Positions 44,612 through 62,442 are shown, numbered from the stretch's first letter. The stretch is 64,000 nt of DNA from an uncultured Pseudomonadota bacterium (GCA_902774285.1 CACYHO010000001.1:400958-464957), one strand, 5' to 3'. The notes: a model not told the origin generated them from the sequence alone. Numbers and translations: made by a program.

Positions 44612-46109
44612 AACATGCTATACTTTGCATAAGAAAGGTTCGAGAATGTATAAAATCCGTAGAAATTTGCACGATCTGGTGTTTTATGTCGGGATTTTTT
44701 CTGCCTTTAATCTTATGTTTTTCACAAATGTTTTTGCAGAAATATATGTTTCAAAACGATCAATGAAAAATTGCTTTGATGTGTACGGTTCGGATGATTT
44801 TTTATTTACAAGATGTTGTTTAGATGCGGCAACGGATAAACTTGTTAAAGAACAGGTGAAATGCACACCTGGGCAATATGTGCCACAAGATTCTACGACG
44901 TGCGCGGTTTGTGATGCGGAACCTTTTAAAAATCGTTATTTTTGTCCTGGCGGAACTTTTGAAGTACCAAAAAGTATAATCCAAGGTGCAATAGCGTGCA
45001 ATGATGGTATGGTCACCAACAAGACACGTGATGGGTGCGTAAAAGAATCAGCAGGAAATGGAAATAAGAAGGGTGACAATAGTAACGACAGAAGAGAACA
45101 ATCACTTAAGGAAGAAAATAAAATAGAAAACATTATTAAAGAACAAGTTAATCAAAATACATCAAAAGAAGAAAAGAAGATTATAAATTCACCACAAGTT
45201 ATATATCCTGCAGATGTTTTATATGGATACAAAAAAGGGAATAACAGGGGTGACAATAGTAACGACAGAAGAGAACAATCACTTAAGGAAGAAAATAAAA
45301 TAGAAAACATTATTACAGAACAAGTTGGTCAAAATACATCGACAGAAGAAAACAAAATTATAAATTTGACACAAATTATATATAACACAGATGTTTTAGA
45401 TTACAGAAATGTTGATATATCAAAAATGTCTGAACAAGAAGCATGCGAATATTGGGCTTTAATGAATAACGGTGAAAAGAGTGGTGCGTATTGGCATGAA
45501 GAAACCCAGATTTGCGTTCCTGTGGGCGGAAATTTATGGGTGGCACATTGGAACAAAACACAAAAAAAGTTTGAATGTCTTAACATATTTGATGCCGCTG
45601 AAAAGTGGCATGATGCCCAATGGCGAGAAGAACAAAAAAGCTGGTTAGAATCCTATAGAAAACATATTTATGATGATAAAGGAAATTTGAAGCCAGCAGT
45701 TATAGGGCTTCAATGGGATAGAAACTTTGGAAAGTGTACAAGTGAAATAGAAAGACAATGCCTTGCGAAAGGTGACACATATGATTGGTTTGGAACATGT
45801 TATAGACATGAAAATAACAAAAAAACATGTATAGATATTATTGGTGGTAAATGGAAAGATGAAAATGGTCAAGAAAGTTGTGAATGCAATATTGGTCAGT
45901 ATGATATGTTGTCGTGGACACCACAAAAATGTCAGTATAAGATTTTATTAAAACAAGAAAATTCCAGTACAAATTATATAGATCAACAAAATACAGGGCC
46001 AAATAAGTATTCTGACACAATACCACTGGAATATTGCTTTGAAAAATACAAAGACGGTTTTTTGAATAATCAGTTATCAGAACCAAAATCGAAACTTAAT
46101 TGTAAATAA
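44601..46109 (+). CDS. Exported Cys-rich protein with an internal 59-aa tandem duplication
   Basis: Hydrophobic N-terminal segment; CTPGQY, CPGG; start codon uncertain (44601 or later). Confidence 0.65.
   Translation: MKNETCYTLHKKGSRMYKIRRNLHDLVFYVGIFSAFNLMFFTNVFAEIYVSKRSMKNCFDVYGSDDFLFTRCCLDAATDKLVKEQVKCTPGQYVPQDSTTCAVCDAEPFKNRYFCPGGTFEVPKSIIQGAIACNDGMVTNKTRDGCVKESAGNGNKKGDNSNDRREQSLKEENKIENIIKEQVNQNTSKEEKKIINSPQVIYPADVLYGYKKGNNRGDNSNDRREQSLKEENKIENIITEQVGQNTSTEENKIINLTQIIYNTDVLDYRNVDISKMSEQEACEYWALMNNGEKSGAYWHEETQICVPVGGNLWVAHWNKTQKKFECLNIFDAAEKWHDAQWREEQKSWLESYRKHIYDDKGNLKPAVIGLQWDRNFGKCTSEIERQCLAKGDTYDWFGTCYRHENNKKTCIDIIGGKWKDENGQESCECNIGQYDMLSWTPQKCQYKILLKQENSSTNYIDQQNTGPNKYSDTIPLEYCFEKYKDGFLNNQLSEPKSKLNCK
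45060..45413 (+). repeat. Two tandem 177-bp in-frame repeats
   Basis: gggtgacaatagtaacgacagaagagaacaatcacttaaggaag... at 45071 and 45248. Confidence 0.9.
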
Positions 46110-46455: not shown

Positions 46456-46698
46456 ATGACACACGAAGATGTATGGCGTGCAATAGAAAAATTTGCCACG
46501 GAACATCATATGTCTTGTTCTGGGCTGGCAAAATGCAGCGGTTTGGATCCAACAACCTTTAATAAAAGCAAACGTTGGTCAAAAGAAGGGCAACCAAGAT
46601 GGCCTTCGACCAACAGTATTTCCAAGATATTGGCATCAACAGGCGCTTCTTTGGAAGATTTTACTAAATTTATCCCGTCCAATGAACATACAATGTAA
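46456..46698 (+). CDS. Alphaproteobacterial XRE-type HTH regulator without S24 domain
   Basis: MTHEDVWRAIEK...SGLAK.SGLDPTTFNKSKR...RWPSTNSISKIL; RBS AGGAG. Confidence 0.85.
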   Translation: MTHEDVWRAIEKFATEHHMSCSGLAKCSGLDPTTFNKSKRWSKEGQPRWPSTNSISKILASTGASLEDFTKFIPSNEHTM

Positions 46699-47817: not shown

Positions 47818-48576
47818 TTATTCCGCATTGCCACACGTTGTATCATCACACACATAATAATCAGTATTGTTATATTTGATTTTTAAATGTTGGACAGAAT
47901 CTTTGTTCATCACCGTTTCGATTGTTGTCATATTTGCATAAAATATATCATTCCCAACACGTATGTTTAACGAAGGTGTCGTTTGTTTGGTTTGTTTTAA
48001 ATAAATATTATCATTTCCAACGTGTAATATATGCGGATAACAAACCGCAGAACCGGTTGGGGCAAATGTGTTATTGGCGCATTGTTCAATACCCTGTGGT
48101 GTTATTTCATTAAAAGTCAAATTTCCACCTGGACAATAATGGTCGTTCAAACATTTCCTGCATTCATCAATATTTGCCGGTAAATAATATCCCGGATTAC
48201 AATTATGAATATTTGGGGTAAAAGTTGCCGTAATATTTGAAACGTTATTATATGCTCTCAAAAAATTTTCTTTACAACCGTTTCTTATATTTTCTGTGAC
48301 TTGTATCTTGAATTTATTTCCTTGGTCATATTCTTCATTAAAGGTAAAGTTTCCCCCATTACAATCATAAACATCGGGACACACCACACAACCATCATTA
48401 TTTGCCGGAACATAATATCCGGAATTACATTGGTATTGGTTCGGGGTAAATGTAGCAAATAAATACGTATCAGTATTCAAACCAGACGAACAACCATTTG
48501 GAATGTTTGACATAATCAAATCGTCCGCAAATGCGGGTATTGGTATTATTAAAAATAATAACCATTTGTGTTTCAT
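47818..48576 (-). CDS. Secreted Cys-rich repeat protein
   Basis: Signal peptide; CNSGYY..C..CP..C.GG repeated twice; C-terminal LHVG..TTPSL..RVG domain. Confidence 0.7.
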   Translation of the reverse strand: MKHKWLLFLIIPIPAFADDLIMSNIPNGCSSGLNTDTYLFATFTPNQYQCNSGYYVPANNDGCVVCPDVYDCNGGNFTFNEEYDQGNKFKIQVTENIRNGCKENFLRAYNNVSNITATFTPNIHNCNPGYYLPANIDECRKCLNDHYCPGGNLTFNEITPQGIEQCANNTFAPTGSAVCYPHILHVGNDNIYLKQTKQTTPSLNIRVGNDIFYANMTTIETVMNKDSVQHLKIKYNNTDYYVCDDTTCGNAE

Positions 48577-49355
48577 TATTCAGTAATTACAGGTCCGGCA
48601 ATAAATTGACCAGTACCGGCGTTGTAATAAAATTTAGCTTCAACTCTATCAAATAGACAAGGAACTCCATTCGTATCAAGAACAGGGATAAAATCACGAA
48701 CAAGAGTATTATTTTCATATATTTTTGTGTAATATATTCGTGCTTTTGCTTTTTGTGTGTAATTACCGTTTCCATAATTATCTGCAAACAATGCGAAAGA
48801 ATTGAGGGTATAATATGGTATATTGTTTTTAGAATAAGATACCCCATTAATTGTTTTTGTGAACACACCGTCTGTTTGGGACATTTCTAATACGTACGTA
48901 TTGCTTGTATTGACTGCGGTACAAAAAGAATTTTGAGTTGTATTTTGTGCATGCCAAATACATGTTTCTGTGTTTTTTAATGTAGCGATAAAAGTCCATG
49001 GTCTACCAGCACTTGCTTCTGTTTCGGCACCAGACAAACAAGAGTTTTCATAGGATGTCGGTTGAAATTTGATAATGACTTTTGAATTTGGGTGAGAAAA
49101 AACCACTCCTGTGTCTATAGCTTGTGTTCCTGTGGATTCTAAATATTCAACTGGTATATAATTTGATATTTTCCATCCTGTAAAGGTATATCCATATCTT
49201 GTCGGGGGTGTGGACGGTAAAATTAAATCACTGTTAATTTCACATGTTGAATCTTGGTATGTTGTTCCGTCATAATTTAACCAGTGCAGGTTTATTGTAT
49301 CGGCAAATGCAAAACCGATAAACATTAATGATAATAATACAACAAACCGTTTCAT
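48576..49355 (-). CDS. Secreted protein with InlB B-repeat-like segment and lectin/LamG-like domain
   Basis: Start MKRFVVLL at 49355; TPPTRYGYTFTGW; EYLESTGTQAIDTG...LVRDFIPV...FYYNAGTGQF. Confidence 0.7.
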   Translation of the reverse strand: MKRFVVLLSLMFIGFAFADTINLHWLNYDGTTYQDSTCEINSDLILPSTPPTRYGYTFTGWKISNYIPVEYLESTGTQAIDTGVVFSHPNSKVIIKFQPTSYENSCLSGAETEASAGRPWTFIATLKNTETCIWHAQNTTQNSFCTAVNTSNTYVLEMSQTDGVFTKTINGVSYSKNNIPYYTLNSFALFADNYGNGNYTQKAKARIYYTKIYENNTLVRDFIPVLDTNGVPCLFDRVEAKFYYNAGTGQFIAGPVITE

Positions 49356-49380
49356 TTGATTTTTCCCCCAACACAAACCA

Positions 49381-49622: not shown

Positions 49623-49700
49623 TTGACTTTTATGTCAATTTGTGATATTATATAACACATCAAGAATAGAAATTTTGCCCGCAATATTGCGGCTTTTTTT
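49623..49700 (+). promoter_or_regulatory. Promoter of phage-like cluster followed by a leader terminator
   Basis: TTGACT-N17-TATTAT (TGn); CCGCA-ATAT-TGCGG plus T7 at 49677-49700. Confidence 0.65.
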
Positions 49701-49763
49701 ATTCAATATTTTTGCCTGCACTTTTTGTGCGGGCTTTTTTTAACAAAAAAACAGGTCTTGAAC

Positions 49764-50174
49764 ATGCAGTTAAATTTAATAACAAATAACGATGATACAC
49801 AAATCGTATCATATAAATTGGCACGTATAATATTTGCAGAAACAGATGCTTTGTCTTTGCAAATAGTGGAAGCAATGGCTTCGATGATTAACAATATTCA
49901 TATTAAATATGATAAATCATTTGAATCTATTGCAAAAGATAATGATTTATTTGAATGTTTAAATTCAAAATCATCACGTAATAAAAATTTAAATGTTGCT
50001 GCAAATGACAGAAAATTCCAAATGTGTTTGCGTGTTGTTCAAACAATGATGCGTGGTAATTTACAAGATACTGTATTCGGTGCAACAAAATTTCATCATG
50101 CAAATATTATTCCACAATGGGCAATGTCACGTGGATATATATCGGAATGTGAAGATATTTTGTTTTATTTGTAA
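49764..50174 (+). CDS. SleB/Hydrolase_2-like cell wall hydrolase (endolysin-like)
   Basis: LARIIFAE, FECLN, GATKFHH...PQWA...ILFY. Confidence 0.75.
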   Translation: MQLNLITNNDDTQIVSYKLARIIFAETDALSLQIVEAMASMINNIHIKYDKSFESIAKDNDLFECLNSKSSRNKNLNVAANDRKFQMCLRVVQTMMRGNLQDTVFGATKFHHANIIPQWAMSRGYISECEDILFYL

Positions 50175-50188
50175 ATAAAGGATAAACG

Positions 50189-50407
50189 ATGAATAAAATA
50201 ATAAAAGGTGGATATTTACAAGACAAAAAAACTTATGTTGTATCAAGTGTCGGAATAATATCTGCCGTTGGTGCTTATTTAATCGGCGATGAAGATATTT
50301 TTACAATGATGCAAACAATATTTACATTAGGCGGTATTTATTTTCTTAAACAAGAATCTTCAACCAAAGGAAAAAACAATGGAAAACGTTCCAGAAAAAT
50401 TTCTTGA
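50189..50407 (+). CDS. Holin-like small membrane protein
   Basis: KKTY then two hydrophobic segments and a basic tail; follows the hydrolase. Confidence 0.55.
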   Translation: MNKIIKGGYLQDKKTYVVSSVGIISAVGAYLIGDEDIFTMMQTIFTLGGIYFLKQESSTKGKNNGKRSRKIS

Positions 50408-51035
50408 TGACAAAGGTGAATTAAACACATCGGCGTTAGTAAAATCATATTGTGAATTAGAAAAAAAGATGAGCAATATGATTTCTGTTCCAAATGATGA
50501 CAGTGATGAAAATGTAAAACAAAAATTTAATCATGCAATTGGTGTTCCAGAAAATGCTTCTGAATATCCAACGAACGATTTGTTCGATGACGAATCGGTT
50601 CGTAATAAATTTCATGAAATTGGTTTAACAAAAAAACAAGTTGAACAAATTTATTCTATCGCTGAAGAATTTTTACAACCAACATTAAAAAATTTATTTG
50701 AATTACAAAATCAAACAAATGCGATTAATGAATTAAAAAATTTTTTTGGTGGAACAGAAAAAATGAATGATGCATTGCGTGAAATAAAAGCATTCGGTGA
50801 AAAATATTTACCAGCATCTGCGTTTGAAGAGCTGTGTGCTACACCCCAGGGAATACAAGGCGTGTACAAAATGATGCAATCTTTTGAACCGACAGTTTTA
50901 ACAGATAAAAATGTATCAGAAAATTTAACTGATGATATGTTGCGTAACATGATGCGTGATCCAAAATATTGGCGTGATCAAGATCCAGAATATGTTCGTA
51001 AAATTGAAAATGGTTTTAAGAAATTATATTCATAA
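50379..51035 (+). CDS. Capsid scaffolding/assembly protein (podovirus-type)
   Basis: VPEKF...LVKSY.ELEKK...GVPE; C-terminal MRDPKYWRDQDPEYVRKIENGFKKLY. Confidence 0.78.
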   Translation: MENVPEKFLDDKGELNTSALVKSYCELEKKMSNMISVPNDDSDENVKQKFNHAIGVPENASEYPTNDLFDDESVRNKFHEIGLTKKQVEQIYSIAEEFLQPTLKNLFELQNQTNAINELKNFFGGTEKMNDALREIKAFGEKYLPASAFEELCATPQGIQGVYKMMQSFEPTVLTDKNVSENLTDDMLRNMMRDPKYWRDQDPEYVRKIENGFKKLYS

Positions 51036-51132
51036 ATAATTTTTATTCTTTACTATTTGTTTTGATTCATATAAAATATGATTAAGAACAAAATAAATTT
51101 TGTTCTATCCAAAACATAATAAGGAGAGAATC

Positions 51133-51426
51133 ATGTTCTTTAGTTCAAAGAAAAAATGTGCATGTGCAAAAGCTGCTGCTAAACCAGCTGCAAAAAAAGC
51201 ACCTGCAAAAAAAGTTGCTGCTAAAAAACCAGCTGCAAAAAAACCAGTTGCTAAAAAACCTGTAGCAAAAAAACCAGTTGCAAAAAAAGTAGTTGCAAAA
51301 AAAGCTCCTGCTAAAAAACCAGCTGCAAAAAAAGTAGTTGCTAAAAAAGCTCCTGCTAAAAAACCAGCTGCAAAAAAAGCACCTGCTAAAAAACCAGCTG
51401 CAAAAAAAGTAGTTAAGAAAAAATAA
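51133..51426 (+). CDS. Histone H1-like Lys/Ala/Pro-rich DNA-binding protein
   Basis: Repeats of [15 protein letters not shown]; RBS AAGGAG. Confidence 0.8.
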
Positions 51427-51669
51427 GAATTTGCGCAAATATTTTGCGTGATTTTTTATATGTCATCCCCAAAGCGTTTGTTTTGGGGATTTTTTTGATA
51501 AATTTTTCAGTTAGATATTATATGTCTAACTGAATTTTTTATTGGATAATCCATTTTTGGACCCTTTTTTGTGTTTTGTATTTATGGCGCGATATTTTTC
51601 GCACAACCATTAATCAAAATTTTTCAAATGCGCGTAAGCGTTTTTTAATTTAAACAAAAAGGATTTCTT

Positions 51670-52491
51670 ATGTCTATGTCTGTAGATCAAGTGTTTATAA
51701 AACAATTTGAAGCAGATGTTCATTTGGCTTATCAGCAAATGGGCACAAAATTACGCTCTACAATTCGTAGTAAATCTGGGGTTGTGGGGACTTCTACTAC
51801 TTTCCAAAAAGTTGGCAAAGGTATTGCCAGCACAAAATCACGTCATGGGATTGTTCCTGTGATGAATTTGAATCACACACCTGTTGAATGCACATTGCAA
51901 GATTATTATGCAGGCGATTGGGTTGATGCATTGGATGAATTGAAAACTAATGTTGATGAACGTCGTGTAGTCGCTTCTGCTGGTGCTTATGCTTTGGGTC
52001 GCAAAACAGATGAATTAATCATCAATGCTATGAATTCTGCAACACAATATGTTGGTGATTATTCAACAGGTTTAACAAAAGCTATGATCATGGCTGCTTT
52101 GGAAAAATTGAACGCAAACGATGTTCCAGATGATGGTCGCAGATTTGCTGTTGTTGGTGTTCACCAATGGAACGAATTGTTGAAATTAGACGAATTCGTT
52201 TCTTCTGATTATGTTGGCGGTTCTACACCTTTGGTAGATGGTTGCGAATCACGTAAATGGTTGGGTGTTAATTGGATTTTATGCAATGCATTGCCATTAA
52301 GCAGCGACGATCGTGATTGCTTTATGTATCACGCATCCAGTATCGGTCATGCTTGTGGTCAAGAAGTTAAAACAGATATCACATGGCATGGTGAACGTGC
52401 CGCTCACTTTATCAGCAACAGCATGTCTCAAGGCGCTGTTTTGATTGATAACGATGGTATCGTTCGTTTGAAATGTGATGATGACGCATAA
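51670..52491 (+). CDS. Major capsid protein (BPP-1-like podoviral family)
   Basis: SVDQVFIKQFEADVHLAYQQMGTKLR, DWVDALDELK, ALGRKTDELII, WLGVNW. Confidence 0.88.
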   Translation: MSMSVDQVFIKQFEADVHLAYQQMGTKLRSTIRSKSGVVGTSTTFQKVGKGIASTKSRHGIVPVMNLNHTPVECTLQDYYAGDWVDALDELKTNVDERRVVASAGAYALGRKTDELIINAMNSATQYVGDYSTGLTKAMIMAALEKLNANDVPDDGRRFAVVGVHQWNELLKLDEFVSSDYVGGSTPLVDGCESRKWLGVNWILCNALPLSSDDRDCFMYHASSIGHACGQEVKTDITWHGERAAHFISNSMSQGAVLIDNDGIVRLKCDDDA

Positions 52492-52516
52492 TAACTTGTA
52501 ACCAAAAGGAAAAAAG

Positions 52517-52747
52517 ATGGCTTTTCAAAATAAAAACTTGTCCGTGATTGCATACGCAAACGGTTTTACTTTGTGGCATTATAAAGAAAACGCAACATTG
52601 GCAACAATAACTGCATCTGGATATTTTTCCAGTTTGAAAAATCTTATGAACACAGGCGATATCATTTTAATCAATGGTTCAAATGGTTCTTCGATTAAAG
52701 TTATTACAGTTGCAGAAGGTGTTGTAACTGTTGGTGCGTTATCATAA
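52517..52747 (+). CDS. Small capsid-associated (decoration-like) protein
   Basis: LWHY...ATITASGYF...GDIILI; position directly after the capsid gene. Confidence 0.6.
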   Translation: MAFQNKNLSVIAYANGFTLWHYKENATLATITASGYFSSLKNLMNTGDIILINGSNGSSIKVITVAEGVVTVGALS

Positions 52748-52810
52748 TAATTTCTTCGTTGAATAGTGTTGGGGGATATTTATCCCCCATTTTTTATTTA
52801 ATAAATAGGT

Positions 52811-53335
52811 GTGAATATGTTTACAAAAATAGATTTATGTTCAATGGCATTATTAAAATTGGGCGAAAAACCAATTCAATCGTGGCGTGAAGACAGTGCC
52901 AGTGCACAATTGGCCAGAACGTTGTTTGATCCAACGGTTGATACTTTGTTATCAATGTTTCCATGGCGTTTTGCCACAAAAACTTTAGTTTTAAATAAAA
53001 CACAAGATGGCGATTTTGTAATTCCAAGTGAAGTATTAAGAATTTTAAAATGTAATGGTCAAATTATAGGCAACAGAATCAAAGCCGCAGAAAATACAAT
53101 AACAATATTGGCTGTTGTTAAAACAGAACCAGAAATGTTCCCTGGGTATTTTGCAACATTGGTCGCCACGAAATTGGCAATGGAATTCTGTATTCCGCTT
53201 ATTGGCGATGCAAATGTATTTAAAATGATGACCGCATTATACGAATCAGAATATCAATCTGCAAAATTCATAGACAGTACAACATCAAAACAATCAAATA
53301 TTGGAAGTTTTTCTTTGATAGATTCCAGATTTTAA
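52811..53335 (+). CDS. Tail adaptor / tubular protein A-like
   Basis: IDLCSMALLKLGE..I...LL..PWRFA...LA.E. Confidence 0.75.
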   Translation: MNMFTKIDLCSMALLKLGEKPIQSWREDSASAQLARTLFDPTVDTLLSMFPWRFATKTLVLNKTQDGDFVIPSEVLRILKCNGQIIGNRIKAAENTITILAVVKTEPEMFPGYFATLVATKLAMEFCIPLIGDANVFKMMTALYESEYQSAKFIDSTTSKQSNIGSFSLIDSRF

Positions 53336-53353
53336 ATAACAAGGAGTTTTTAT

Positions 53354-55066
53354 ATGGGGAATTTTCTTAAAACACAAAATTCTTTTTCAAACGGAGAAGT
53401 TGCGCCTGAATTTTATGCGTTAAATAATGTTCATGGACTTTCTGTGCTTGAAAATATGGATGTTTTGCAATCTGGTGGATTAAAACGTAGACCCGGGTTG
53501 AAACAAATAGCACAAATACCACAAGATGCTATATTGGTGCCTTTTAAAATAAGCGAAACAGAAAAATATTTGTTGGTGATGTATGGCCAAACCATAGATG
53601 TATATGAAAATGATATAAAAATAACAACGATTACAACTTCATGGACCGATATCAATCTAAAGCAAATGCAATATGCACAAAGATTTAATACTATATTTTT
53701 TGTATTTAATAATCTTAAACCACAGATGCTTACAAAAGATGCCGATGGTTTTCATATAAAACAATTCAGTTTTTATGTTAACCAAAATATGAGTATAAAT
53801 ATTCCATTTATGCGTTTTGATGATATGGATGGGGTGTCGATTACTATTTCAAACAGTGATATTGATAATAATCATGCAGTTTTTACTACTAATAAAGATT
53901 TATGGTCGGCAGATTGGGTTGGTGAACGTTTGTTGGTTAATGACATTCAATGGATTGTACAATCTGTTCAAAGTGCCCGTTCTGTAACAGTTTATACAAA
54001 CAGCGGTTTTTCATTTCCTGGGACGCCGCTGTATGATTGGTATGTTGCAGCATTCAGTGCTAAACGCGGTTGGCCAATGTCTGTGTCTTTTCATCAGAAC
54101 AGACTTGTTTTTGGTGGAACAAAGTCGGCACCGAATAACTTATGGATGTCAAAAGTTGGCGATTATACTAATTTTGATACAGGTACTGGGTTAGATGATG
54201 ATGCAATTTTCTTGACTTTATTATCTTCACAACATCACCAAATATCTACGATAGTCAGCAGTGATAATTTACAAATATTAACTTCTGTTGGTGAATGGGC
54301 AATTTCAAATGCACCGTTAACGCCATCAAATGTTAATGTTAAACAACACACGTCTGTGGGCAGTACAACAAGTACATATTTGCCACCACAACAGATAGAA
54401 GGTGCAACTGTTTTTATATCTCAATCAGGCAAAGATGTACGAGAATTAGATTTAGATGATTTAAGCCAACATTATAATGCAAACGATTTGTGTTTGTTTT
54501 CTAAACACTTGATGAACAATCCATCAAGTATAGCTTTCAATCAATCAACACATCAATTGTTTGTTGTGATGGAAGACGGCTATATGGCTGTTTTGAATAA
54601 ACATCCAAACACAGAAATTAATGCGTGGGGAAAATATATAACAGATGGACACTTTAAATATGTGTCTGTGTTTGATAATAACACATACGTTGTTGTTAAA
54701 CGCCAAGATAAATTTTATTTAGAAAAATTTGATTCAGATTGCCTGGCAGATTGTCAAACATACAATTTTACATACAGAATATCTGCTTTCCCGATGATTG
54801 TTAATAATCATAACCCAAAGAAAATTCGGGCACGTAAAGTATCTGTGCGTGTAATAGATACAAAAACATTATTCATCAATAGTTACCGTGTTGAAATTCC
54901 AAATTATGTTTATGAAACAGGTAGTTCTGGATATAACGGTGATTTAACCATTAATTTATTAGGTGGTCAAATTAACACGATAGAACCTTTGTGGACGTTG
55001 TCCAGCAGTGAACAATTAAATGCAACGATATTATCTGTCACTGTGGATGGATGGTATTCAATTTAA
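53354..55066 (+). CDS. Tail nozzle / tubular protein B-like
   Basis: QNSFSNGEVAP, GGLKRRPG, GWP.SVSFHQNRLVFGG, LWMSKVGDY.NF. Confidence 0.85.
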   Translation: MGNFLKTQNSFSNGEVAPEFYALNNVHGLSVLENMDVLQSGGLKRRPGLKQIAQIPQDAILVPFKISETEKYLLVMYGQTIDVYENDIKITTITTSWTDINLKQMQYAQRFNTIFFVFNNLKPQMLTKDADGFHIKQFSFYVNQNMSINIPFMRFDDMDGVSITISNSDIDNNHAVFTTNKDLWSADWVGERLLVNDIQWIVQSVQSARSVTVYTNSGFSFPGTPLYDWYVAAFSAKRGWPMSVSFHQNRLVFGGTKSAPNNLWMSKVGDYTNFDTGTGLDDDAIFLTLLSSQHHQISTIVSSDNLQILTSVGEWAISNAPLTPSNVNVKQHTSVGSTTSTYLPPQQIEGATVFISQSGKDVRELDLDDLSQHYNANDLCLFSKHLMNNPSSIAFNQSTHQLFVVMEDGYMAVLNKHPNTEINAWGKYITDGHFKYVSVFDNNTYVVVKRQDKFYLEKFDSDCLADCQTYNFTYRISAFPMIVNNHNPKKIRARKVSVRVIDTKTLFINSYRVEIPNYVYETGSSGYNGDLTINLLGGQINTIEPLWTLSSSEQLNATILSVTVDGWYSI

Positions 55067-55081
55067 CAAGGAGATTAAAAT

Positions 55082-55429
55082 ATGGGACAATTAGTATCAG
55101 ATGTAACAAAAGTTTTAGATTATAAAGAATCTAAAAAATCAGCAGAAAATCAAAGACAACAAATACTTGCGCAAATGGCGGCAGACGAAGCTACAAAAAC
55201 AAATTTGATAAAAAAAGCATTGTCTGCGCAACGCGCAAAATATGGTGCGTCGGGTAATACTGGTTCTGGTTTGTCAGAAAGTGCAGTGTTAAAACGTTTG
55301 CGCGAAGAAACTGCAAAACCGTACGACGAAAAATATCAAGAAAATATAGAAAAAATTAAAAAGTTAAAAGTAAAAAAACCAAACATACTTAAAACATGGT
55401 TGTCTAACATAGATAAAATAGCAGGATAG
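55082..55429 (+). CDS. Internal virion protein-like
   Basis: QRAKYGASG..GSG..AVL motif typical of small podoviral core proteins; synteny. Confidence 0.55.
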   Translation: MGQLVSDVTKVLDYKESKKSAENQRQQILAQMAADEATKTNLIKKALSAQRAKYGASGNTGSGLSESAVLKRLREETAKPYDEKYQENIEKIKKLKVKKPNILKTWLSNIDKIAG

Positions 55430-55438
55430 GGGGCGTAA

Positions 55439-55975
55439 ATGTATAAAATCTCTTATGTTGGGGACGGAGAAACAACAGAATTCACGTTTTCTTTTCCGTT
55501 CTTTCAAGAATCTGATATCAAGGTAAGCATTGATAATGAAATATTAAATAATACCCAATATGATGTTAATCCAAATGATGATTTTACCGGTGGTATAGTT
55601 GTGTTCGCAAATGCCCCGACAAGTAATCAAAACATAGATATATTTCGTCAGGTAGATTTATCACGTGTGATTGATTATCAACCAACATCAAAAATAGATC
55701 CAGAAGATTTAAATTCTGACTTTAATTTTTTATTGGCTGCATTGCAGGATATAAGAACAATAGATATCGATTTAGCACAATGGTCAAATGTTCATGATAA
55801 TCTTTTGAATAAAATAGATTATGTCATAGACACCATAGAAGATAAAATGTCAGGCGGCGCGATATTGGGTTTATATTATAATCTGGTATCTGTATTGGAA
55901 GATTTAATAAATGATTATGGTTCTGTTGATGAAGATGCAGACGATGAAAACAATGACGATTACGGAAGCATTTAG
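55439..55975 (+). CDS. Tail-fibre N-terminal adaptor domain only (T7 gp17 N-like)
   Basis: YVGDGETTEFTFSFPFF...IKV...R; EDLNSDF; no distal fibre domain. Confidence 0.7.
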   Translation: MYKISYVGDGETTEFTFSFPFFQESDIKVSIDNEILNNTQYDVNPNDDFTGGIVVFANAPTSNQNIDIFRQVDLSRVIDYQPTSKIDPEDLNSDFNFLLAALQDIRTIDIDLAQWSNVHDNLLNKIDYVIDTIEDKMSGGAILGLYYNLVSVLEDLINDYGSVDEDADDENNDDYGSI

Positions 55976-56552
55976 TTTTTTAGACGCTTGGAATAAAATT
56001 TTAGGCTTTAAAACACCAGAGCATCATAAACAGATAATAAGTTTTCTGGTTGATGTGTTTAACAATGAACCGCGTCGCGGTCTGTTAAACGCTTTCCGAC
56101 ATTCTGGTAAATCGACAGTTGTGGGTGTTTTTGCAGCTTGTGTTTTATATCATAAGCCAGAAAGCAGAATTTTGATATTATCTGCAGAATCAGGGTTGGC
56201 ATCACGTATGGTTGCCCATATAAAAAATATACTTGAAAATCATCCGTGGTGTGAAGGTGTTGTACCAGAAGTAAAAAAAGAATGGGGTTCGCATAAAATA
56301 ACAATTAACAGACCTGTTGGAATTCGCGAACCTTCTGTTATTTGTCAGGGTATTTCTGGAAATATAACTGGTATGCGTGCAGATTTGATAATATGTGATG
56401 ACGTCGAAGTTCCGAATACGTGTAATACGGCACAAAAAAGGGTGAACCTGCGTGAAAGATTGCGCGAACTTGATTTTATACTATCGCCAAAGGGAACAAT
56501 GATTTTCATTGGAACCCCACATACACAAGACACAATATATAAAGTCGAATAA
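55953..56552 (+). CDS. Large terminase, N-terminal ATPase half
   Basis: AFRHSGKST (Walker A), ITGMRADLIICDDVE (Walker B), IGTPHT, then stop; start 55944 or 55953. Confidence 0.85.
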   Translation: MTITEAFSFLDAWNKILGFKTPEHHKQIISFLVDVFNNEPRRGLLNAFRHSGKSTVVGVFAACVLYHKPESRILILSAESGLASRMVAHIKNILENHPWCEGVVPEVKKEWGSHKITINRPVGIREPSVICQGISGNITGMRADLIICDDVEVPNTCNTAQKRVNLRERLRELDFILSPKGTMIFIGTPHTQDTIYKVE

Positions 56553-56553
56553 T

Positions 56554-57195
56554 TTATGAAAGAGATGACATAAATGTGCGAAGCTTTGCAAGCATTTCAT
56601 TACCCGCATCACCAAACATAGGAAGATATGTTTCGAACTCTGGCATGTCTGCTTGAATTTGTGCGCGGTTACGTTCGGATAATGTTTCTGATAATAATTC
56701 TTTGGCACTGTCCCAAATGCGATAAGCTTTATCTGTTTGTGCAACAACTTTCCATTTAGAAATCATGTCTTTGTCATGTGCGATTGCAGATTTAATATCT
56801 TCAACCCAATCATTACCAAATTTCTGAATGAATGTTAATTGTCTGATAGTATTCAAACCATCAATTGTTGGCTGGAATTCTTCCAGTGCATGTTTCAATT
56901 GATTGATTTCATCTTCGGTCAACGAAATATTTGCTTTTCGGTCAGACATCAAACCACCATATGGCAACAAATCTTTGTCTATAGTATCCATAGGTGTTTT
57001 ACCACTGCGCAGATTATTTATATGTGTAACGAGTTTTTTGCCTGTTGGCATAGATTCTAATTCGGCTATAACCTGGTCATCATTAGATTCTGTGATAAAA
57101 ACTTTGTTAACAGCAGCCCATCCGCCATCAATAACGTGAGCTTGACGATAAAGGTTCAATAAACGCTGTGCGATTGTATGTGCTTGTTGTTGCAT
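56554..57195 (-). CDS. Hypothetical protein
   Basis: 213-aa ORF, RBS GGGGAG; co-oriented with the HTH gene and dnaB. Confidence 0.7.
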   Translation of the reverse strand: MQQQAHTIAQRLLNLYRQAHVIDGGWAAVNKVFITESNDDQVIAELESMPTGKKLVTHINNLRSGKTPMDTIDKDLLPYGGLMSDRKANISLTEDEINQLKHALEEFQPTIDGLNTIRQLTFIQKFGNDWVEDIKSAIAHDKDMISKWKVVAQTDKAYRIWDSAKELLSETLSERNRAQIQADMPEFETYLPMFGDAGNEMLAKLRTFMSSLS

Positions 57196-57223
57196 TTTAT
57201 CTCTCCCCAGGTTATAAAGTGCT

Positions 57224-58231
57224 TTATTGCATAACTATCATGACAACTTTATGGAATGTTTTTCCTGTTATCTTTTCTTCAGGATTTGATACATGACCAA
57301 AAGTTTTGCCATGGCTATCTTGACGTACAACCACAATTTGTGCATCAACGATATCATCAGATGATAATTTTGTAAAATCTTCGTTTATGCATACAGCCAA
57401 ATCACCAACCTTTGGTTTTGTTGTAGCGTCTACGAAAACATAAGAAGATTCTGGTATGAAACCACCCAGTCTTTTTGAATTAGGAATAACAGCATATATT
57501 CCATTGCGGCCTTCTAATGTAGTAGGTGCAACAATCATTGTTTCGTCAGATTTCTTCAATTTGATGTTTTTGCCGGCAGGCTTACCGAAAACAGGAACCA
57601 ATTTTTTGCGTGCATTATCATACAATTGTGCACCGTAAAGACCACCATGAATATCCAAACCTGATATTGGGTTGACAGGTTCCAAAACAGATTTAACGCG
57701 TTCTTTGACTTTGTTAATTTGTTTTGTTAATTCACCAGCCTTATACAGTTTTGCGATTTCATCAAACAATTCAGATGCACTGTATCCAAAAGCATGAGCC
57801 AAAGTATCGATTTCGTTTTCATAAACTTCGCGTTGACCAACTTCGATTTTATGATAAACAGACAATGTCATTTTTGCATCTTTGGCGGCCTGAGCAATAG
57901 TTTTTTCTTTGCGTTGACGGATTTTGCGAAGTCCGGAACCGAATATTTTCAATCCGCTGTCTTCGTTGTCATTTAAACGGCGCTTGATTTCATTTTGCCA
58001 ATTTTGCGCGACAGAATCAGATTCGTGAATAAATATATCTGACAATTTGCAGCCCAATATTGTGCATACATTTAACAACTGTTTTTGATTAAGACGACGA
58101 ACGCCTTTTTCAATCTTTGATACAGCAGAAAGTGATAAATTAGCACGACGTGCCAATTCTGTCATTTTCATACCTTTGCTTGCACGAATATTGCGAATAT
58201 TATTTGGAAAAATGATTTCTTCTTGTGCCAT
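57224..58231 (-). CDS. Repressor-like protein with two XRE HTH domains and an S24-like C-terminal domain
   Basis: NNIRNIR...LARRANLSLSAVSKIEKG; LRKIR...AKMTLSVYHKIEVG; VPVFG...YVFVD..KPKVGD; RBS AAGGAG; TTGCCA-N17-TAATAT promoter. Confidence 0.75.
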   Translation of the reverse strand: MAQEEIIFPNNIRNIRASKGMKMTELARRANLSLSAVSKIEKGVRRLNQKQLLNVCTILGCKLSDIFIHESDSVAQNWQNEIKRRLNDNEDSGLKIFGSGLRKIRQRKEKTIAQAAKDAKMTLSVYHKIEVGQREVYENEIDTLAHAFGYSASELFDEIAKLYKAGELTKQINKVKERVKSVLEPVNPISGLDIHGGLYGAQLYDNARKKLVPVFGKPAGKNIKLKKSDETMIVAPTTLEGRNGIYAVIPNSKRLGGFIPESSYVFVDATTKPKVGDLAVCINEDFTKLSSDDIVDAQIVVVRQDSHGKTFGHVSNPEEKITGKTFHKVVMIVMQ

Positions 58232-58297
58232 GACCGGACTCCTTGATATCATGTTGACAAAATATTAGTCAATTTTTAAGGGCTTGGCAAGTAAAAA

Positions 58298-59845
58298 TTA
58301 AATCATATCATCAGGAATATCGTTAATGTCAGCAACTGTTTGGACATTTGTATCTGATACGGTCGCATACTGTTGATCATTATTGGCATCTGCGAAAGGT
58401 TGAACACCGTATTGATTAAGGTTATCAAACAAGTAATATTCACCAGTGAAGCTCAGGTGAACTGTTTCTGGTTTACCGTGACGGTTCTTTGCTATGATGA
58501 TGTCTGCTTTGTTGCGAACACTGTCTAAACGTTTTTGCCAATTCTGCATAGAGGTTTCTGATGCGGTGCCAGATAATTTTTTATCAGGGGAACGACCTTC
58601 AAGATAGTATTCTTCACGATATGTGAACATAACAATATCGGCATCTTGTTCGATAGATCCGGATTCACGCAAATCTGACAACACAGGTCTTTTATCATCA
58701 CGTTGTTCGACGCTTCGTGATAATTGGGACAGTGCGATAACAGGTACATCTAATTCTTTGGCCAATATCTTTAATCCACGGGTGATTTCTGATAATTCTT
58801 GCACGCGGTTATCATTGTGTTTACCACCAGGAGAAGTCATCAACTGTAAATAGTCGATAACAATCAAAGCCAAACCGCCGAATTGACGTGCGATACGACG
58901 TGCACGTGTTTTTATCGCGGCCACAGACATATTTGCAGTATCGTCAATAACAACAGGTACTTTCGAAAGGGCATCGCTGTATTGCGACATCTTTGTAAAA
59001 TCTTCATCTGTTAAATTACCATCACGCATGTGTGATGCAGGTATTTTTGATTGTGAAGATAATACACGTGCCGCCAATTGAGAATATGACATTTCAAGAC
59101 TGAAGAAAGCAACTGCGCCTTTGTATTGATTGTTTGCGCGGCCGTTTAAAATAGCATTTGCAGCATTGAAAGCGATATTCATTGCCAATGTTGTTTTACC
59201 CATACCTGGACGTCCAGCAATAATAATCAAATCAGAATGGTGCAGGCCGCTGATTGATTTATCTAAATCGTCTAACCCTGTGGTAAGACCAGACAATTTA
59301 CCATCGGCTTTGTATGCAACAGCTGCTTCTTGTAAAGCGCTTTGTAATGCATCTGCCAAAGATACTATATTGCGTTCGCTTTGACCCGTAGAAGCCAAAT
59401 TAAACAGTTTCTGTTCGGCAGATTCTATTTGATTATTTACGGTTTTATCCAAATCTTCGGTGTATGCATCATCGATAATGCTTTGACCCAATTGAATCAA
59501 ATCACGACGGCGCGCATTATCAAAAACAATACGTCCATAATGTTCAACATTGACAACAGTAGATCCCGCTGATGCTAATTTGGATAAATATTCAACACCG
59601 CCGACACTTTCCAATGTGCCTTGTTGTTCAAGGTATGTTTTTGCAGTGATTATATCAAAAGGGACCCCGACAGCAAACTGACGCATAGCCAAACGATAAA
59701 TTTCTTGGTGTGCTGGATGCGAAAAATGTTCTGGTAACAAAAAGTCTGATACAGATTCCAATGCGCGGTTGTTCATCAATACCGCGGCCAGCACAGCCTG
59801 TTCGGCTTCTAAATTAGTAGGTAAAGTTTTCGGAGTAAAGTCCAT
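58298..59845 (-). CDS. dnaB: Replicative DNA helicase
   Basis: EAEQAVL, AGRPGMGKT, IDYLQL, LSQLSR, DLRESGSIEQDAD; start 59845 or 59851. Confidence 0.96.
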   Translation of the reverse strand: MDFTPKTLPTNLEAEQAVLAAVLMNNRALESVSDFLLPEHFSHPAHQEIYRLAMRQFAVGVPFDIITAKTYLEQQGTLESVGGVEYLSKLASAGSTVVNVEHYGRIVFDNARRRDLIQLGQSIIDDAYTEDLDKTVNNQIESAEQKLFNLASTGQSERNIVSLADALQSALQEAAVAYKADGKLSGLTTGLDDLDKSISGLHHSDLIIIAGRPGMGKTTLAMNIAFNAANAILNGRANNQYKGAVAFFSLEMSYSQLAARVLSSQSKIPASHMRDGNLTDEDFTKMSQYSDALSKVPVVIDDTANMSVAAIKTRARRIARQFGGLALIVIDYLQLMTSPGGKHNDNRVQELSEITRGLKILAKELDVPVIALSQLSRSVEQRDDKRPVLSDLRESGSIEQDADIVMFTYREEYYLEGRSPDKKLSGTASETSMQNWQKRLDSVRNKADIIIAKNRHGKPETVHLSFTGEYYLFDNLNQYGVQPFADANNDQQYATVSDTNVQTVADINDIPDDMI

Positions 59846-60692
59846 GTCCATTAGATTAAACGAAAATTTTCAGAATTCAATACCTTTTTTACGTGGGTAT
59901 AAACAATTAAAAATACCTATCTTGGACAGTGCTGGAAATCCGGCCTGGCCAGAGATGTTCCCAATAGAAAAAGTACATGAATTAGAAGACATTGTGGGGC
60001 CGCGACATTTTTCTGCACAAATGATGCTGGAATATGTCGCACAAGAGCGCATTCATTTGGATCCGGGGGCATTGCATTTTTATGCAAGCGATTTTGATGT
60101 TTATAATAATCGAATCGGTGATAATAACATTACAGGTGTTGCTTTTTATTGGGATCCTTCAACTGGACAAAGAAATTGTGATGGCAGTGTTTGTGCACTG
60201 ATATATCGTGATGATAAAAACAGAAATGTTTTTGTTCATGATGTTTTGTATATGGAAGTCAGCGATGACGATATGCATCCGTTAAGTAATCAATGTGATT
60301 GCGTTCTGGATTTTATGCAAAAACACCATTTAACAAGAATCGGTATAGAAATAAATGGTATTGGAAATGCGTTACCCGAAATTATGCGTAATATCGCACA
60401 AAATCGTAATGTTCAAATAAACATTGCCCAAATTTCAAATCATACAAAAAAAGAAACACGAATTGTGAATGCTTTGGAACCACTGTTGTCCACAGGTCAT
60501 CTTTATATGCACGAAAAGATAAAACAAACAATGTTGTTATCAGAAATGTTGGCTTGGACGCCCGCGGGTTCCAAAGAACACGATGATGGACTGGACGCTG
60601 TTGCAGGCGCGATATCTATGATGCCTTTGCCGGTAAGAGTATACGGAAAATCATCACAACAAATTCAAGCAAATACAGAATTTAAAGTATAA
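59844..60692 (+). CDS. Large terminase, C-terminal nuclease half
   Basis: PFLRGY..L.IPILD..G.PAWPE.F linker; YWDPS, IEING, KKETRI, HDDGLDA (RNase H fold). Confidence 0.85.
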   Translation: MSIRLNENFQNSIPFLRGYKQLKIPILDSAGNPAWPEMFPIEKVHELEDIVGPRHFSAQMMLEYVAQERIHLDPGALHFYASDFDVYNNRIGDNNITGVAFYWDPSTGQRNCDGSVCALIYRDDKNRNVFVHDVLYMEVSDDDMHPLSNQCDCVLDFMQKHHLTRIGIEINGIGNALPEIMRNIAQNRNVQINIAQISNHTKKETRIVNALEPLLSTGHLYMHEKIKQTMLLSEMLAWTPAGSKEHDDGLDAVAGAISMMPLPVRVYGKSSQQIQANTEFKV

Positions 60693-60713
60693 CCAAACAA
60701 AAGGAATATCAAA

Positions 60714-61937
60714 ATGCAAAAAAATCTTATGCAATTATATAAACGCGCGTTAGACGAAAGAGAAATATGGTTGCCTCGTTGGAAGAACGCGATGCGTTAT
60801 ACAATACCAACAGACGATACAGAATCTGCTACTTTGTTTGATGCAACTGCTGCAGATGCAGTGGATAATTTAGCTGCATCAATGTATTCGTTATTAACAC
60901 CACCAGAATCTTTGTGGATAAACCTGGTTCGTGAAAGCGATTTGTCGCCTGATGCAGAAATTGCAACAGCGATGTTACGTGCTCATTTAAACGATTCTAA
61001 TTTTTATACAACTGTGCATCAATGTTATATTGATTTAGTTGTATTGGGAACTGCGTGTTTGTTCATGGCAGAAAATCCAATCGGTGCAGATTCCGCATTT
61101 TCTTTCACTGCGATACCAATGAAAGATATTGCTATATTGCCAGGTATGGTTTTTCACACTACATCATTGCCAGTATCTGATTTGATGGAAAAATATCCAG
61201 ACTTTGTTTTTCCAGCAAATATGCGTGATACTATAAAAACAAATCCTCAAACACCGATAAGATTGGTTCAGTCTTTAATCGGTAAAGATTTTACAGCGTG
61301 GGTTGATGTTGGCGGAGATATTGAAAATAACATTGTTGCACGTGGAACATTTGAAACCAATCCATATATCATATTCCGTTGGTCTTTGGTAAGTGGTGAA
61401 TTATACGGCCGTGGTCCAGTGTTGCGTGCGCTGCCCGATATTAAAACAGCAAACAAAGTTGTTGAATTAGTGTTGAAAAATGCAACTATCGCCGTAAGCG
61501 GTATATGGCAGGCTGATGATGATGGTGTTATCAATTTATCCAACATAAATTTGACGCCAGGTGCGATTATTCCAAAGGCTGTGGGCAGTTCTGGTTTAAC
61601 CCCGTTGCAAAGTGGTTCTGATTTTGATGTGTCTCAAATTGTTTTGCGTGATTTGCGCGATCGTATTCGTCACACATTGTTGGCAGACAGACTTGGGTTG
61701 CTTTCTGATAAAGAAATGACGGCAACTGAAATATTGGCGCGGAACAGTGATATGGTGCGCATACTTGGTGCAACATATGGTCGTTTACTACATGAATTTA
61801 TCAGGCCGTTATGTGAACGCGGATTGCAAATATTATCGCGTCGTGGATTGATAGATAAAATATCTTTGCACAGTGATGCAGAATTAAAATATATTGCACC
61901 CATTGCGCAAATGGCACGTGAAGAAATGTCTATATAA
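60714..61937 (+). CDS. Portal / head-tail connector protein (podoviral type, compact)
   Basis: FDATA..A.DNLA, DLVVLGTA, RW...GE.YGRGP..ALPDIKT.N, MTATEI. Confidence 0.9.
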   Translation: MQKNLMQLYKRALDEREIWLPRWKNAMRYTIPTDDTESATLFDATAADAVDNLAASMYSLLTPPESLWINLVRESDLSPDAEIATAMLRAHLNDSNFYTTVHQCYIDLVVLGTACLFMAENPIGADSAFSFTAIPMKDIAILPGMVFHTTSLPVSDLMEKYPDFVFPANMRDTIKTNPQTPIRLVQSLIGKDFTAWVDVGGDIENNIVARGTFETNPYIIFRWSLVSGELYGRGPVLRALPDIKTANKVVELVLKNATIAVSGIWQADDDGVINLSNINLTPGAIIPKAVGSSGLTPLQSGSDFDVSQIVLRDLRDRIRHTLLADRLGLLSDKEMTATEILARNSDMVRILGATYGRLLHEFIRPLCERGLQILSRRGLIDKISLHSDAELKYIAPIAQMAREEMSI

Positions 61938-61949
61938 AAGGTTAATACA

Positions 61950-62150
61950 ATGAACGATATTGAAAAACACTATGCACGCATTTTTAATACACCTTCTGGC
62001 AAACAAGTTTTAAAGCATTTGCGAAATATAACGATAGAACGCAATGTTGGACAAAACATATCAGATAATGATTTGCGTTGGTGGGCAGGTCAAATTGCAT
62101 TGGTTCATCAAATAGAGAACATTGTAAAAAGAGGTAATAATCCAACATAA
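61950..62150 (+). CDS. Small conserved phage protein following the portal (Bbp19-like)
   Basis: YARIFNTPSGKQVLKHL...GQ..LV..I. Confidence 0.7.
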   Translation: MNDIEKHYARIFNTPSGKQVLKHLRNITIERNVGQNISDNDLRWWAGQIALVHQIENIVKRGNNPT

Positions 62151-62181
62151 TATAGATTGTGGTAAATTATTAATAAACATT

Positions 62182-62442
62182 ATGACAAAACAGCAAAATA
62201 TATTTACATTTTTGGATGCGTTGCGAGACAGTTGGTTTTTGATAGTTTTTATTGCTGGCTTAATTTATTGGGTTGCGCGTCAAGATTCATCTTTGGCAGA
62301 AATAGAACGACAAGATCAACGTATAACATCTTTGGAAAACAGAACAACAATACTGGAATCTGGTATTGGTCAATTACAATTAAAAATTGACGGCATAAAA
62401 GAAGATGTGACTTTGATTAAAAGTGCAGTTATAAAAAATTAA
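62182..62442 (+). CDS. Single-TM coiled-coil protein
   Basis: WFLIVFIAGLIYWV then heptads. Confidence 0.55.
   Translation: MTKQQNIFTFLDALRDSWFLIVFIAGLIYWVARQDSSLAEIERQDQRITSLENRTTILESGIGQLQLKIDGIKEDVTLIKSAVIKN

Follow-up and report, generated by a model that had tools for sequence, protein, structure and literature searches.

The chromosome of an uncultured Pseudomonadota bacterium (GCA_902774285.1) carries, within a stretch of 64,000 nucleotides (CACYHO010000001.1:400958-464957; hereafter the window, to which all positions refer unless another contig position is given), a compact set of phage head, tail, packaging and lysis genes at positions 49,623 to 62,442, and in the midst of these lies the replicative helicase gene dnaB. 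The question is whether such a cluster is a prophage, the remains of one, or a device that now belongs to its host. A preliminary description made from the sequence alone favoured the last of these, and proposed a streamlined, vertically inherited particle of the gene transfer agent (GTA) kind that packages host DNA or protein cargo. Our analysis indicates that the region is probably a host-domesticated derivative (a 'viriform') of a T7/LME-1-like short-tailed phage, inherited vertically in the order Rs-D84 and making particles of the GTA kind, and is not a prophage. Judging from its homologues, the cluster also appears to belong to a wider family of such clusters in the Alphaproteobacteria.

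The window is part of an 855-kb, four-contig assembly of about 35% G+C that is 77% complete, and the closest relatives in public data are labelled Candidatus Enterousia or uncultured gut Alphaproteobacteria, sampled from rumen, horse, sheep and chicken. The host order is Rs-D84 (Candidatus Enterousia and relatives), with genome sizes of 0.7-1.1 Mb in the 31 genomes examined, and its members have been described as obligate symbionts or parasites without nucleotide and amino-acid synthesis (PMC12306168). We compared about 80 species-level Enterousia loci (individual counts are over 64 to 76 of them where stated), a genus set of 36 genomes, an order-level set of 61 relatives representing 12 genera and six families (f1, which is Enterousia, and f2 to f6), and a class-level survey of 401 evenly drawn Alphaproteobacteria genomes, from which twenty loci were fetched; phages were compared through 50,697 phage records. 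Gene calls rest on Pfam and PHROG profile searches, PDB searches, AlphaFold2 models compared with Foldseek, and Rfam. Ratios of non-synonymous to synonymous substitution (dN/dS) are pairwise NG86 estimates and are to be read as approximate, the median dS of about 1.2 being near saturation.

The phage-type genes all lie on the + strand, and the T7-type set of portal, scaffold, capsid, tubular proteins A and B, fibre and large terminase (TerL) is present (PF05396, PF12236, PF03906, PF22530, phrog_394, phrog_376, phrog_38), so that profile searches recover the set that had been read from the sequence by eye (hydrolase, scaffold, capsid, adaptor, nozzle, fibre adaptor, TerL in two pieces and portal). 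The head genes encode a T7-type scaffolding protein (50379-51035; PF05396, E 3.6e-9, and phrog_3742; dN/dS 0.23), a major capsid protein (51670-52491; PF19821, E 2e-72, and phrog_3437; dN/dS 0.082) for which the closest relative of known structure is that of LME-1 phage (9eg4_A, E 6e-25), and a portal protein (60714-61937; PF12236, E 1e-80; dN/dS 0.065) that matches the PDB portals of LME-1 and T7 and has 407 residues, as against 470-595 in its relatives. Downstream of the capsid gene is a 76-residue capsid accessory (decoration or cement) protein (52517-52747; phrog_18004), the AlphaFold2 model of which (pLDDT 92) matches 9eg4_H, which in the LME-1 capsid entry is chain eight and not a capsid chain (Foldseek E 2.6e-6, TM 0.80), which supports its earlier labelling as a decoration protein. 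The tail genes are those for tail tubular protein A, a gp11-like adaptor (52811-53335; phrog_394, E 3e-32; dN/dS 0.195), and tail tubular protein B, a gp12-like nozzle (53354-55066; phrog_376, E 8e-86; PDB 8ck1_A 'Tail Nozzle', E 8e-28; dN/dS 0.195), followed by a 178-residue fibre stub (55439-55975; PF03906, E 8e-5, and phrog_1640) that consists only of the T7 gp17-type tail-binding N-terminal domain and an acidic tail. The stub is found in about half of the genus loci (dN/dS 0.16 where present) and is missing from the rest.

At the left end of the cluster, the ATG at 49764 begins a cell-wall hydrolase, a SleB-like endolysin (49764-50174; PF07486, E 1e-4, which is under the Pfam cut-off, and phrog_938 endolysin, E 1e-7; dN/dS 0.30), and next to it is a 72-residue holin-like membrane protein (50189-50407; dN/dS 0.18) with no family match in Pfam or PHROG searches, recognised in the sequence by its two hydrophobic segments and basic tail, and conserved in position. 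At the right end an 86-residue protein that combines a membrane segment at its N-terminus with a coiled coil (62182-62442; dN/dS 0.13) is kept in 64 genus loci; it too has no Pfam or PHROG match and is possibly a lysis protein of the spanin or holin type. Between it and the portal gene lies a Bbp19-like small protein (61950-62150; PF25181, E 1e-6), a homologue of which also adjoins the portal in the class-level loci and in Pelagibacter phage Hodr. The 115-residue conserved protein after the nozzle (55082-55429; dN/dS 0.215) occupies the position of the T7 gp13/14-type small internal proteins, is kept in 76 genus loci and has weak homologues after tubB in three loci of other groups (L096, L118 and L122); it has no family match in Pfam or PHROG, and its former label of core protein is unverified. 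Overlooked in the preliminary description, along with two minus-strand genes beside dnaB, was a histone-H1/HC2-like protein of AKKP(A/V) repeats (51133-51426; PF07382, E 9e-15), encoded by a 15-nt tandem repeat whose array spans 51128-51453. In 68 of 70 genus loci the scaffold and capsid genes are separated by an open reading frame whose K+A+P content exceeds 60% and whose length varies between species from 52 to 127 residues; its product would be either packaged with the DNA or a general nucleoid protein.

Genes for integration, excision and replication do not accompany this set. The window holds no integrase, no exact direct repeats flanking the cluster (the search gave only imperfect short repeats of 70-89%) and no tRNA gene adjoining it. 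Pfam and PHROG searches of the window reveal no phage polymerase or primase, the sole helicase being the full-length cellular-type DnaB, and no recognisable small terminase; a single-subunit RNA polymerase (PF00940) has no match in the 77%-complete assembly, in a search run without a positive control. A distal fibre and large internal core or ejection proteins of the gp15/gp16 class are likewise absent, the 115-residue frame being all that stands between nozzle and fibre stub. The absences on which the preliminary description relied (integrase, att pair, phage polymerase or primase, small terminase, large ejection protein and distal fibre) are therefore borne out; no integrase, att or replication genes were found nearby, and no second dnaB in the assembly. 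There are three tyrosine-recombinase matches in the genome, at C1:104 kb, on contig C3 and at C1:498.9 kb, of which the last (C1:498875-499468) is weak (E 2.8e-10, in a 450-residue frame), lies 34 kb past the end of the window and is unrelated to the cluster by position.

In this it resembles a GTA, with phage-derived particle genes in the chromosome and none of its own for integration, excision or replication. The marks of a prophage (integrase, attL and attR, patchy distribution and a variable site) are not seen, nor are those of a satellite such as a phage-inducible chromosomal island (PICI) or capsid-forming PICI (integrase, replication module, helper tails and mobility), for tail genes are present and the site is fixed. 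Neither does the cluster have the single-subunit RNA polymerase, the gp15/gp16-class proteins or the DNA polymerase and primase-helicase that would be expected of the Autographiviridae.

The distribution of the cluster points the same way. Gene order is identical in all of the approximately 80 Enterousia loci, running birA-hydrolase-holin-scaffold-H1-like-capsid-76aa-tubeA-nozzle-115aa-(fibre stub)-TerL-N and then u213-HTH-dnaB/TerL-C-portal-Bbp19-86aa-yraN. The capsid gene is present, almost always once, in 53 of 61 relatives, in 34 of the 36 genomes of the genus and in 10 of the 12 genera of the order, so its occurrence is not patchy, and synteny holds with birA, dnaB and yraN alike. Every frame is intact in the approximately 80 Enterousia species, and dN/dS lies between 0.065 and 0.30 for every cluster gene, the same range as that of dnaB (0.089), birA (0.20) and yraN (0.145). 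In the capsid tree the order forms one clade (support 93), with f1 at 99, f3 at 98 and f2 at 82, and the six family label changes are the minimum possible. Vertical inheritance and purifying selection, both expected of a GTA, are thus seen in synteny, distribution, dN/dS and tree, and the checks that had been proposed (synteny with dnaB and yraN, non-neutral evolution of capsid, portal and the two TerL pieces, and a tree congruent with the host) all came out in favour of the domesticated particle.

The terminase is encoded by two genes. TerL-N (55911-56552, + strand; phrog_38 positions 276-458 of 760, E 1e-43; dN/dS 0.092) is the first part of the ATPase domain, with Walker A (SGKST), Walker B and the catalytic glutamate (ADLIICDDVE) and motif III (IGTPHT); TerL-C (59844-60692, + strand; phrog_38 positions 468-704, E 2e-36, and PF22530; dN/dS 0.19) contributes what is left of that domain, then the linker, and then an RNase-H-like nuclease that retains its acidic residues (WDPS, IEINGIG, DDGLDAVAG). 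Alignment with unsplit TerL proteins, which outside the order are single open reading frames of 490-616 residues, shows that all catalytic motifs are retained across the two halves. The cut falls at the same variable loop in all six families of the order, TerL-N ending 2-5 residues past motif III and TerL-C beginning no more than 15 residues before the next conserved block, and TerL-C, wherever it occurs (53 genomes), is always a separate frame of about 265-330 residues. The families differ in what separates the two halves. In f2, f4 and f5 there are 200-600 nt without a gene, in f3 co-directional ftsZ and portal genes (terLN-ftsZ-portal-terLC; L120, L122, L125 and L126), and in Enterousia the dnaB block on the opposite strand; in f5 (L117) it is TerL-C and portal that are kept apart, by an AmiC-type amidase gene and ftsZ. 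Because the split occurs at one place in all six families and the intervening content is variable, it is one old event after which both halves were kept, and their retention through the later rearrangements is the strongest argument that they would act as a working two-polypeptide terminase. The possibility that a split intein or an intron joins the halves was rejected, since intein halves would not fit, the only Rfam matches in the window are tRNAs, and the intervening genes are on the other strand.

The interlock with dnaB is real but specific to the Enterousia genus or family. The gene (58298-59851, - strand; PF03796, E 9e-102, and PF00772) provides the one DnaB_C match in the whole 77%-complete assembly, and dnaB is single-copy in 59 of the 61 relatives; the chromosomal-type dnaB noticed earlier inside the cluster is thus the only copy in the assembly. 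Beside it on the minus strand are a 342-residue protein with two Cro/C1-type helix-turn-helix (HTH) domains and an uncharacterised C-terminal domain (57224-58252; PF01381 in two stretches, E 5e-18; dN/dS 0.11), for which PDB matches are to the HTH domains only, and u213, an all-helical protein of 213 residues (56554-57195; AlphaFold2 pLDDT 85) with no Pfam or PHROG match and no PDB fold match for its model. The geometry is tight: the convergent stop codons of TerL-N (56552) and u213 (56554) are 1 nt apart, and the TerL-C ATG (59844, with GGAG 8 nt upstream) shares one palindromic CATG with a dnaB ATG, a head-to-head arrangement kept in 72 of 74 loci. Sister families, however, have dnaB 80-170 kb from the capsid gene, with unrelated neighbours, and ftsZ, an amidase gene or nothing inside the cluster.

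The two-HTH protein is a candidate regulator; a proposal that its C-terminal domain is an S24 peptidase finds no support in Pfam or PDB sequence searches. In 58 of the 61 genomes of the order the u213 family is found as one to four paralogues in tandem, for the most part not linked to the cluster, and a search of 1.8 billion proteins yields no more than 77 representatives; we treat it as a lineage-restricted host gene and no part of the phage, and have discarded a role as Q-type antiterminator or phage regulator given its lack of a fold match and its order-wide, mostly unlinked family. Nor did dnaB, the HTH gene and u213 move together as a block, since the neighbours of dnaB in six other families include no HTH or u213 homologue.

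A common feature of the Enterousia loci is the way in which the operon begins. A predicted sigma-70-type promoter (TTGACT-17-TATTAT with an extended -10 TG; 49623-49651, + strand) is followed, before the hydrolase gene, by two tandem intrinsic terminators with hairpins and T-tracts (49679-49701 and 49714-49743, + strand). All 69 genus loci compared have a promoter-like TTGACN-N15-19-TANNNT ahead of the hydrolase gene, and both hairpins and their T-tracts are retained in the aligned loci, the stems varying on both sides while remaining paired, which is covariation. A strong, conserved promoter running into two terminators implies that the default state of the operon would be off and that expression would need read-through. 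A TTGAC-N6-GTCAA palindrome overlaps the -35 element and spacer. Further terminators are predicted on the + strand after the H1-like gene (three, co-directional; 51431-51541) and after the gene for the 76-residue protein (52770-52795), in a scan that yielded 24 terminator-like sites as against 10.9 +/- 3.1 in shuffled sequences.

A candidate for the repressor of the cluster is hth80, an 80-residue Cro/C1-type HTH protein (46456-46698, + strand) with a weak match to Pfam HTH_26 and without a peptidase domain. It occurs in 64 genus loci, with 92-99% identity among those listed, and in most species lies two genes upstream of the cluster promoter. It is also 48-59% identical to the N-terminal 70-79 residues of a 209-residue Peptidase_S24 protein from nine class-level loci, and is the relic of the DNA-binding domain of an S24 (LexA/CI-like) repressor that flanks homologous clusters.

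Those homologous clusters bear on how widely the element is distributed. Capsid homologues are found in 87 of the 401 Alphaproteobacteria genomes, about 65 of them at roughly 50-68% identity and mostly in single copy, and the gene order in the twenty loci fetched is portal-Bbp19-scaffold-capsid-76aa-tubeA-nozzle-...-fibre-TerL(unsplit)-hydrolase. Carriers of the unsplit cluster include Azospirillum (many species; one 90%-identity cluster with 104 members), Niveispirillum, Constrictibacter, Geminicoccaceae and Radicibacter. In nine or ten loci from different families, Azospirillum, Niveispirillum and Radicibacter among them, pyrD adjoins the TerL/hydrolase end, and in nine the S24 repressor gene is upstream of the portal and divergent from it; a scan of two flanks revealed no integrase. 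The element is thus not restricted to the Enterousia lineage. In ten families (L094-L107) the S24 repressor gene and the portal are separated by a gene for a protein of 190-300 residues with a shared C-terminal domain of about 130 residues and no Pfam match; neither the window nor the order-level loci contain a homologue.

To our knowledge the GTA lineages described so far number no more than a handful, RcGTA and BaGTA being those of the Alphaproteobacteria. The RcGTA type (Rhodobacter capsulatus, and CcGTA of Caulobacter; Rhodogtaviriformidae) is likewise a chromosomal, phage-derived set of head, tail, terminase and lysis genes without integration or replication genes, vertically inherited across the class under purifying selection, with occasional loss and dispersal into separate loci, and without ejection machinery, in hosts that retain ComEC and DprA. 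CcGTA also has terminators within its operon, and its control involves anti-termination (PMC11150451). Persistence of RcGTA homologues in the very reduced genomes of endosymbionts (PMC9254644) is a precedent for retention of a GTA in tiny genomes. There is nonetheless no sequence relationship between the two: the capsid here is PF19821 rather than the HK97-type PF05065, which is found in none of the 31 genomes of the order (a Caulobacter control was positive), the tail is a short gp11/gp12 tail rather than that of a siphovirus, the window has no small terminase and has its terminase in two genes, and the capsid is probably larger (T=7 by homology, as against a T=3 oblate head).

BaGTA of Bartonella (Bartogtaviriformidae), which Tamarit and colleagues are said to have described in 2018 as an alphaproteobacterial domesticated phage cluster co-diverging with its host, is similar in just these respects, as far as a comparison by description goes; it differs in being restricted to one genus and in having a phage-derived run-off replication origin, whereas no such origin and no replication genes are seen in the window. 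FpGTA of Faecalibacterium prausnitzii (PMC12946183), also compared by description only, is GTA-like, from a gut bacterium, probably podovirus-like in morphology, near-ubiquitous in its genus and encoded at two loci. It belongs to the Firmicutes, however, has a TerS-like gene, an unsplit TerL and a locus for baseplate, fibre and receptor binding, and its particles and 8-9 kb of packaged DNA have been shown experimentally (PMC12946183), whereas the cluster described here is known from its genes alone.

Particle production, cargo and transfer are inferred, and a plausible cycle can be outlined. The conserved promoter would fire into the two terminators, leaving the operon off, until derepression or antitermination, for which hth80 and the two-HTH protein are candidate factors, allowed read-through into the lysis, scaffold, capsid, decoration and tail genes. 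Portal, scaffold and capsid would then build a procapsid, probably of T=7 by homology, while TerL-N and TerL-C, each translated on its own, would come together as a single ATPase-nuclease motor. This motor would load cellular DNA into the heads by the headful, no sequence-specific small terminase being involved. Adaptor and nozzle would close the head, and the hydrolase, holin and 86-residue protein would lyse the producer cell. Because there are no proteins for ejection across the envelope, the DNA would stop in the periplasm of the recipient, and its further uptake would depend on ComEC and DprA in the manner of RcGTA. Of the 31 genomes of the order, 30 keep ComEC and 29 keep DprA, and this retention, together with the missing RcGTA capsid, fits a GTA-like cycle with uptake by competence without proving it. 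The protein cargo entertained in the preliminary description is unlikely, since the terminase has lost none of its ATPase and nuclease motifs.

The same particles could, however, be made and selected for something other than gene transfer, such as killing or competition in the manner of PBSX, timed lysis with release of DNA or nutrients within a community of obligate symbionts, or interaction with the partner cell that these bacteria depend on. We regard this as a minority possibility, although a live one, because all structural and lysis genes are under selection, the fibre stub can be dispensed with and nothing in the cluster is recognisable as a receptor-binding part, ejection proteins are lacking, the hosts are described as obligate symbionts or parasites (PMC12306168), and the authors of the FpGTA study leave the same alternative open for their particles (PMC12946183). 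Against it are the terminase ATPase and nuclease motifs and the portal, which are the most conserved features and point to DNA packaging as the selected activity, together with a short podoviral tail, which is no contractile killing device, and the retention of ComEC and DprA.

That the cluster is instead a decaying and functionless prophage remnant, persisting only through the essential genes (dnaB) lodged inside it, is very improbable. A TerL in two pieces, a truncated fibre and the disappearance of early genes might be read as decay, and there has been further loss in two species and in family f6, but intact frames in some 80 species and the dN/dS range given above already contradict this explanation, as do a capsid that is more conserved than DnaB across the order (65-75% identity between families, against 45-56%) and sister families that keep the cluster with no dnaB inside it. 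Decay is moreover obvious where it is present: in one Enterousia genome (G028, locus L136) a deletion joins capsid residue 191 to TerL-N residue 95 and the portal is lost, so that intactness elsewhere is no default state. In a second (G033, locus L137) dnaB, the HTH gene and u213 are kept and there are no cluster genes. The losses in these two species and in f6 indicate that the function of the cluster is selected but not essential, as in other GTAs.

Still less credible is an active mobile element, either a temperate phage or a helper-dependent satellite resembling a capsid-forming PICI, that receives its missing functions in trans. Real phages with homologous capsid, portal and tube genes do exist. 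The closest true phage is Pelagibacter phage EXVC031P Hodr, which has homologues of nine cluster proteins (hydrolase, scaffold, capsid, the 76-residue accessory protein, tube A, nozzle, fibre N-terminus, portal and the Bbp19-like protein) and a capsid 44% identical, and the capsid, accessory protein, nozzle and portal of the window match solved structures of the Legionella LME-1 phage. These are true podoviruses, whereas here TerL is split and the cluster fixed in the chromosome; Hodr has a 34-kb genome with about 20 kb of other genes and frames of 159, 783 and 1247 residues between nozzle and fibre, where the window has only the 115-residue frame. The chromosomal cluster has no integrase, att or replication genes, occupies a fixed site in single copy, has a capsid tree that follows host taxonomy, and is interleaved with host essential genes differently from family to family. 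Among the 50,697 phage records no isolated phage exceeds 44% capsid identity, while chromosomal homologues reach 50-75%. A 5-kb unannotated 'Bacteriophage sp.' record from human faeces, MT838907.1, has 63% capsid identity and probably represents a piece of a chromosomal cluster of this kind, carried by a relative in the human gut. Co-option of single genes, with capsid and scaffold as a compartment, the hydrolase for cell-wall turnover and the rest hitch-hiking, deserves equally little credence, for although the cluster is breaking into modules within the order (portal and TerL-C separated, tubB moved in f6), selection acts on every head, tail, packaging and lysis gene alike and the genes were lost together in G028 and G033.

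The interpretation as a vertically inherited GTA-like particle nonetheless has several observations to its disadvantage. With no small terminase, and a fibre stub that about half of the species lack, the start of packaging and adsorption are unexplained. TerL-C and portal have no evident promoter, and we know of no precedent for a working terminase cut inside its ATPase domain. In family f6 (L118, which is G041, and G045 and G048) capsid, TerL-N and portal are present and tubB has moved, and TerL-C is undetected in the three genomes, so that either its nuclease half has diverged or its particle no longer cuts DNA. The absence of most of the cluster from G028 and G033 makes its function dispensable, the near saturation of dS blunts the selection estimates, and ComEC and DprA are also retained by many bacteria without a GTA. 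Finally, because the capsid resembles T=7 capsids (9eg4, with seven capsid chains) of phages with genomes of about 34 kb, head capacity may exceed the 12.8-kb cluster, unlike in classical GTAs.

A more far-reaching reading would join these observations into one account, which as a whole we hold to be improbable. It would recognise a second, ancient GTA lineage derived from T7/LME-1-like podoviruses, extending from cultured Azospirillum and Niveispirillum, with an unsplit TerL beside pyrD, to Rs-D84, where the motor would have consisted of two polypeptides for as long as the order has existed. With the late operon of Enterousia interlocked with the sole dnaB, read-through to TerL-C and portal would run antisense across the dnaB, two-HTH and u213 genes, coupling particle production and lysis to shut-off of replication and of the regulator.

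New here are the terminase split fixed at one residue across the order, the conserved promoter followed by two covarying terminators, the S24-repressor relic, the unsplit clusters by pyrD, the lack of an RcGTA capsid in an order that retains ComEC and DprA, and the loss of the cluster from two species. Phage, capsid and gene transfer all go unmentioned in the genomic description of Rs-D84 and Enterousia consulted (PMC12306168), and we found no matching account in the literature searched on T7-like GTAs, on an Azospirillum GTA of this type or on split terminases. If the domesticated-particle interpretation is correct, this podovirus-derived, class-wide family would be another independent domestication of phage into host-owned particles within the same bacterial class, and its survival in genomes of less than 1 Mb, shorn of most biosynthesis, argues for a strong benefit. 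A two-gene terminase cut in its ATPase domain throughout an order would amount to a natural fragment-complementation experiment on a viral packaging motor, and the unsplit homologues in cultivable Azospirillum and Niveispirillum make function directly testable. In metagenomics such clusters are prone to be miscalled as prophages or 'viral contigs', of which MT838907.1 looks like one case.

Some minor features of the neighbourhood were also observed. In most other species birA stands directly before the cluster promoter, whereas in the window, and likewise in L016, two Cys-rich proteins with signal peptides (252 and 266 residues; 47818-49376, - strand) lie between them. Further upstream, a 169-nt tandem duplication (45056-45401), the copies of which are 88% identical, lies inside a 502-residue open reading frame (44601-46109) without a Pfam match.

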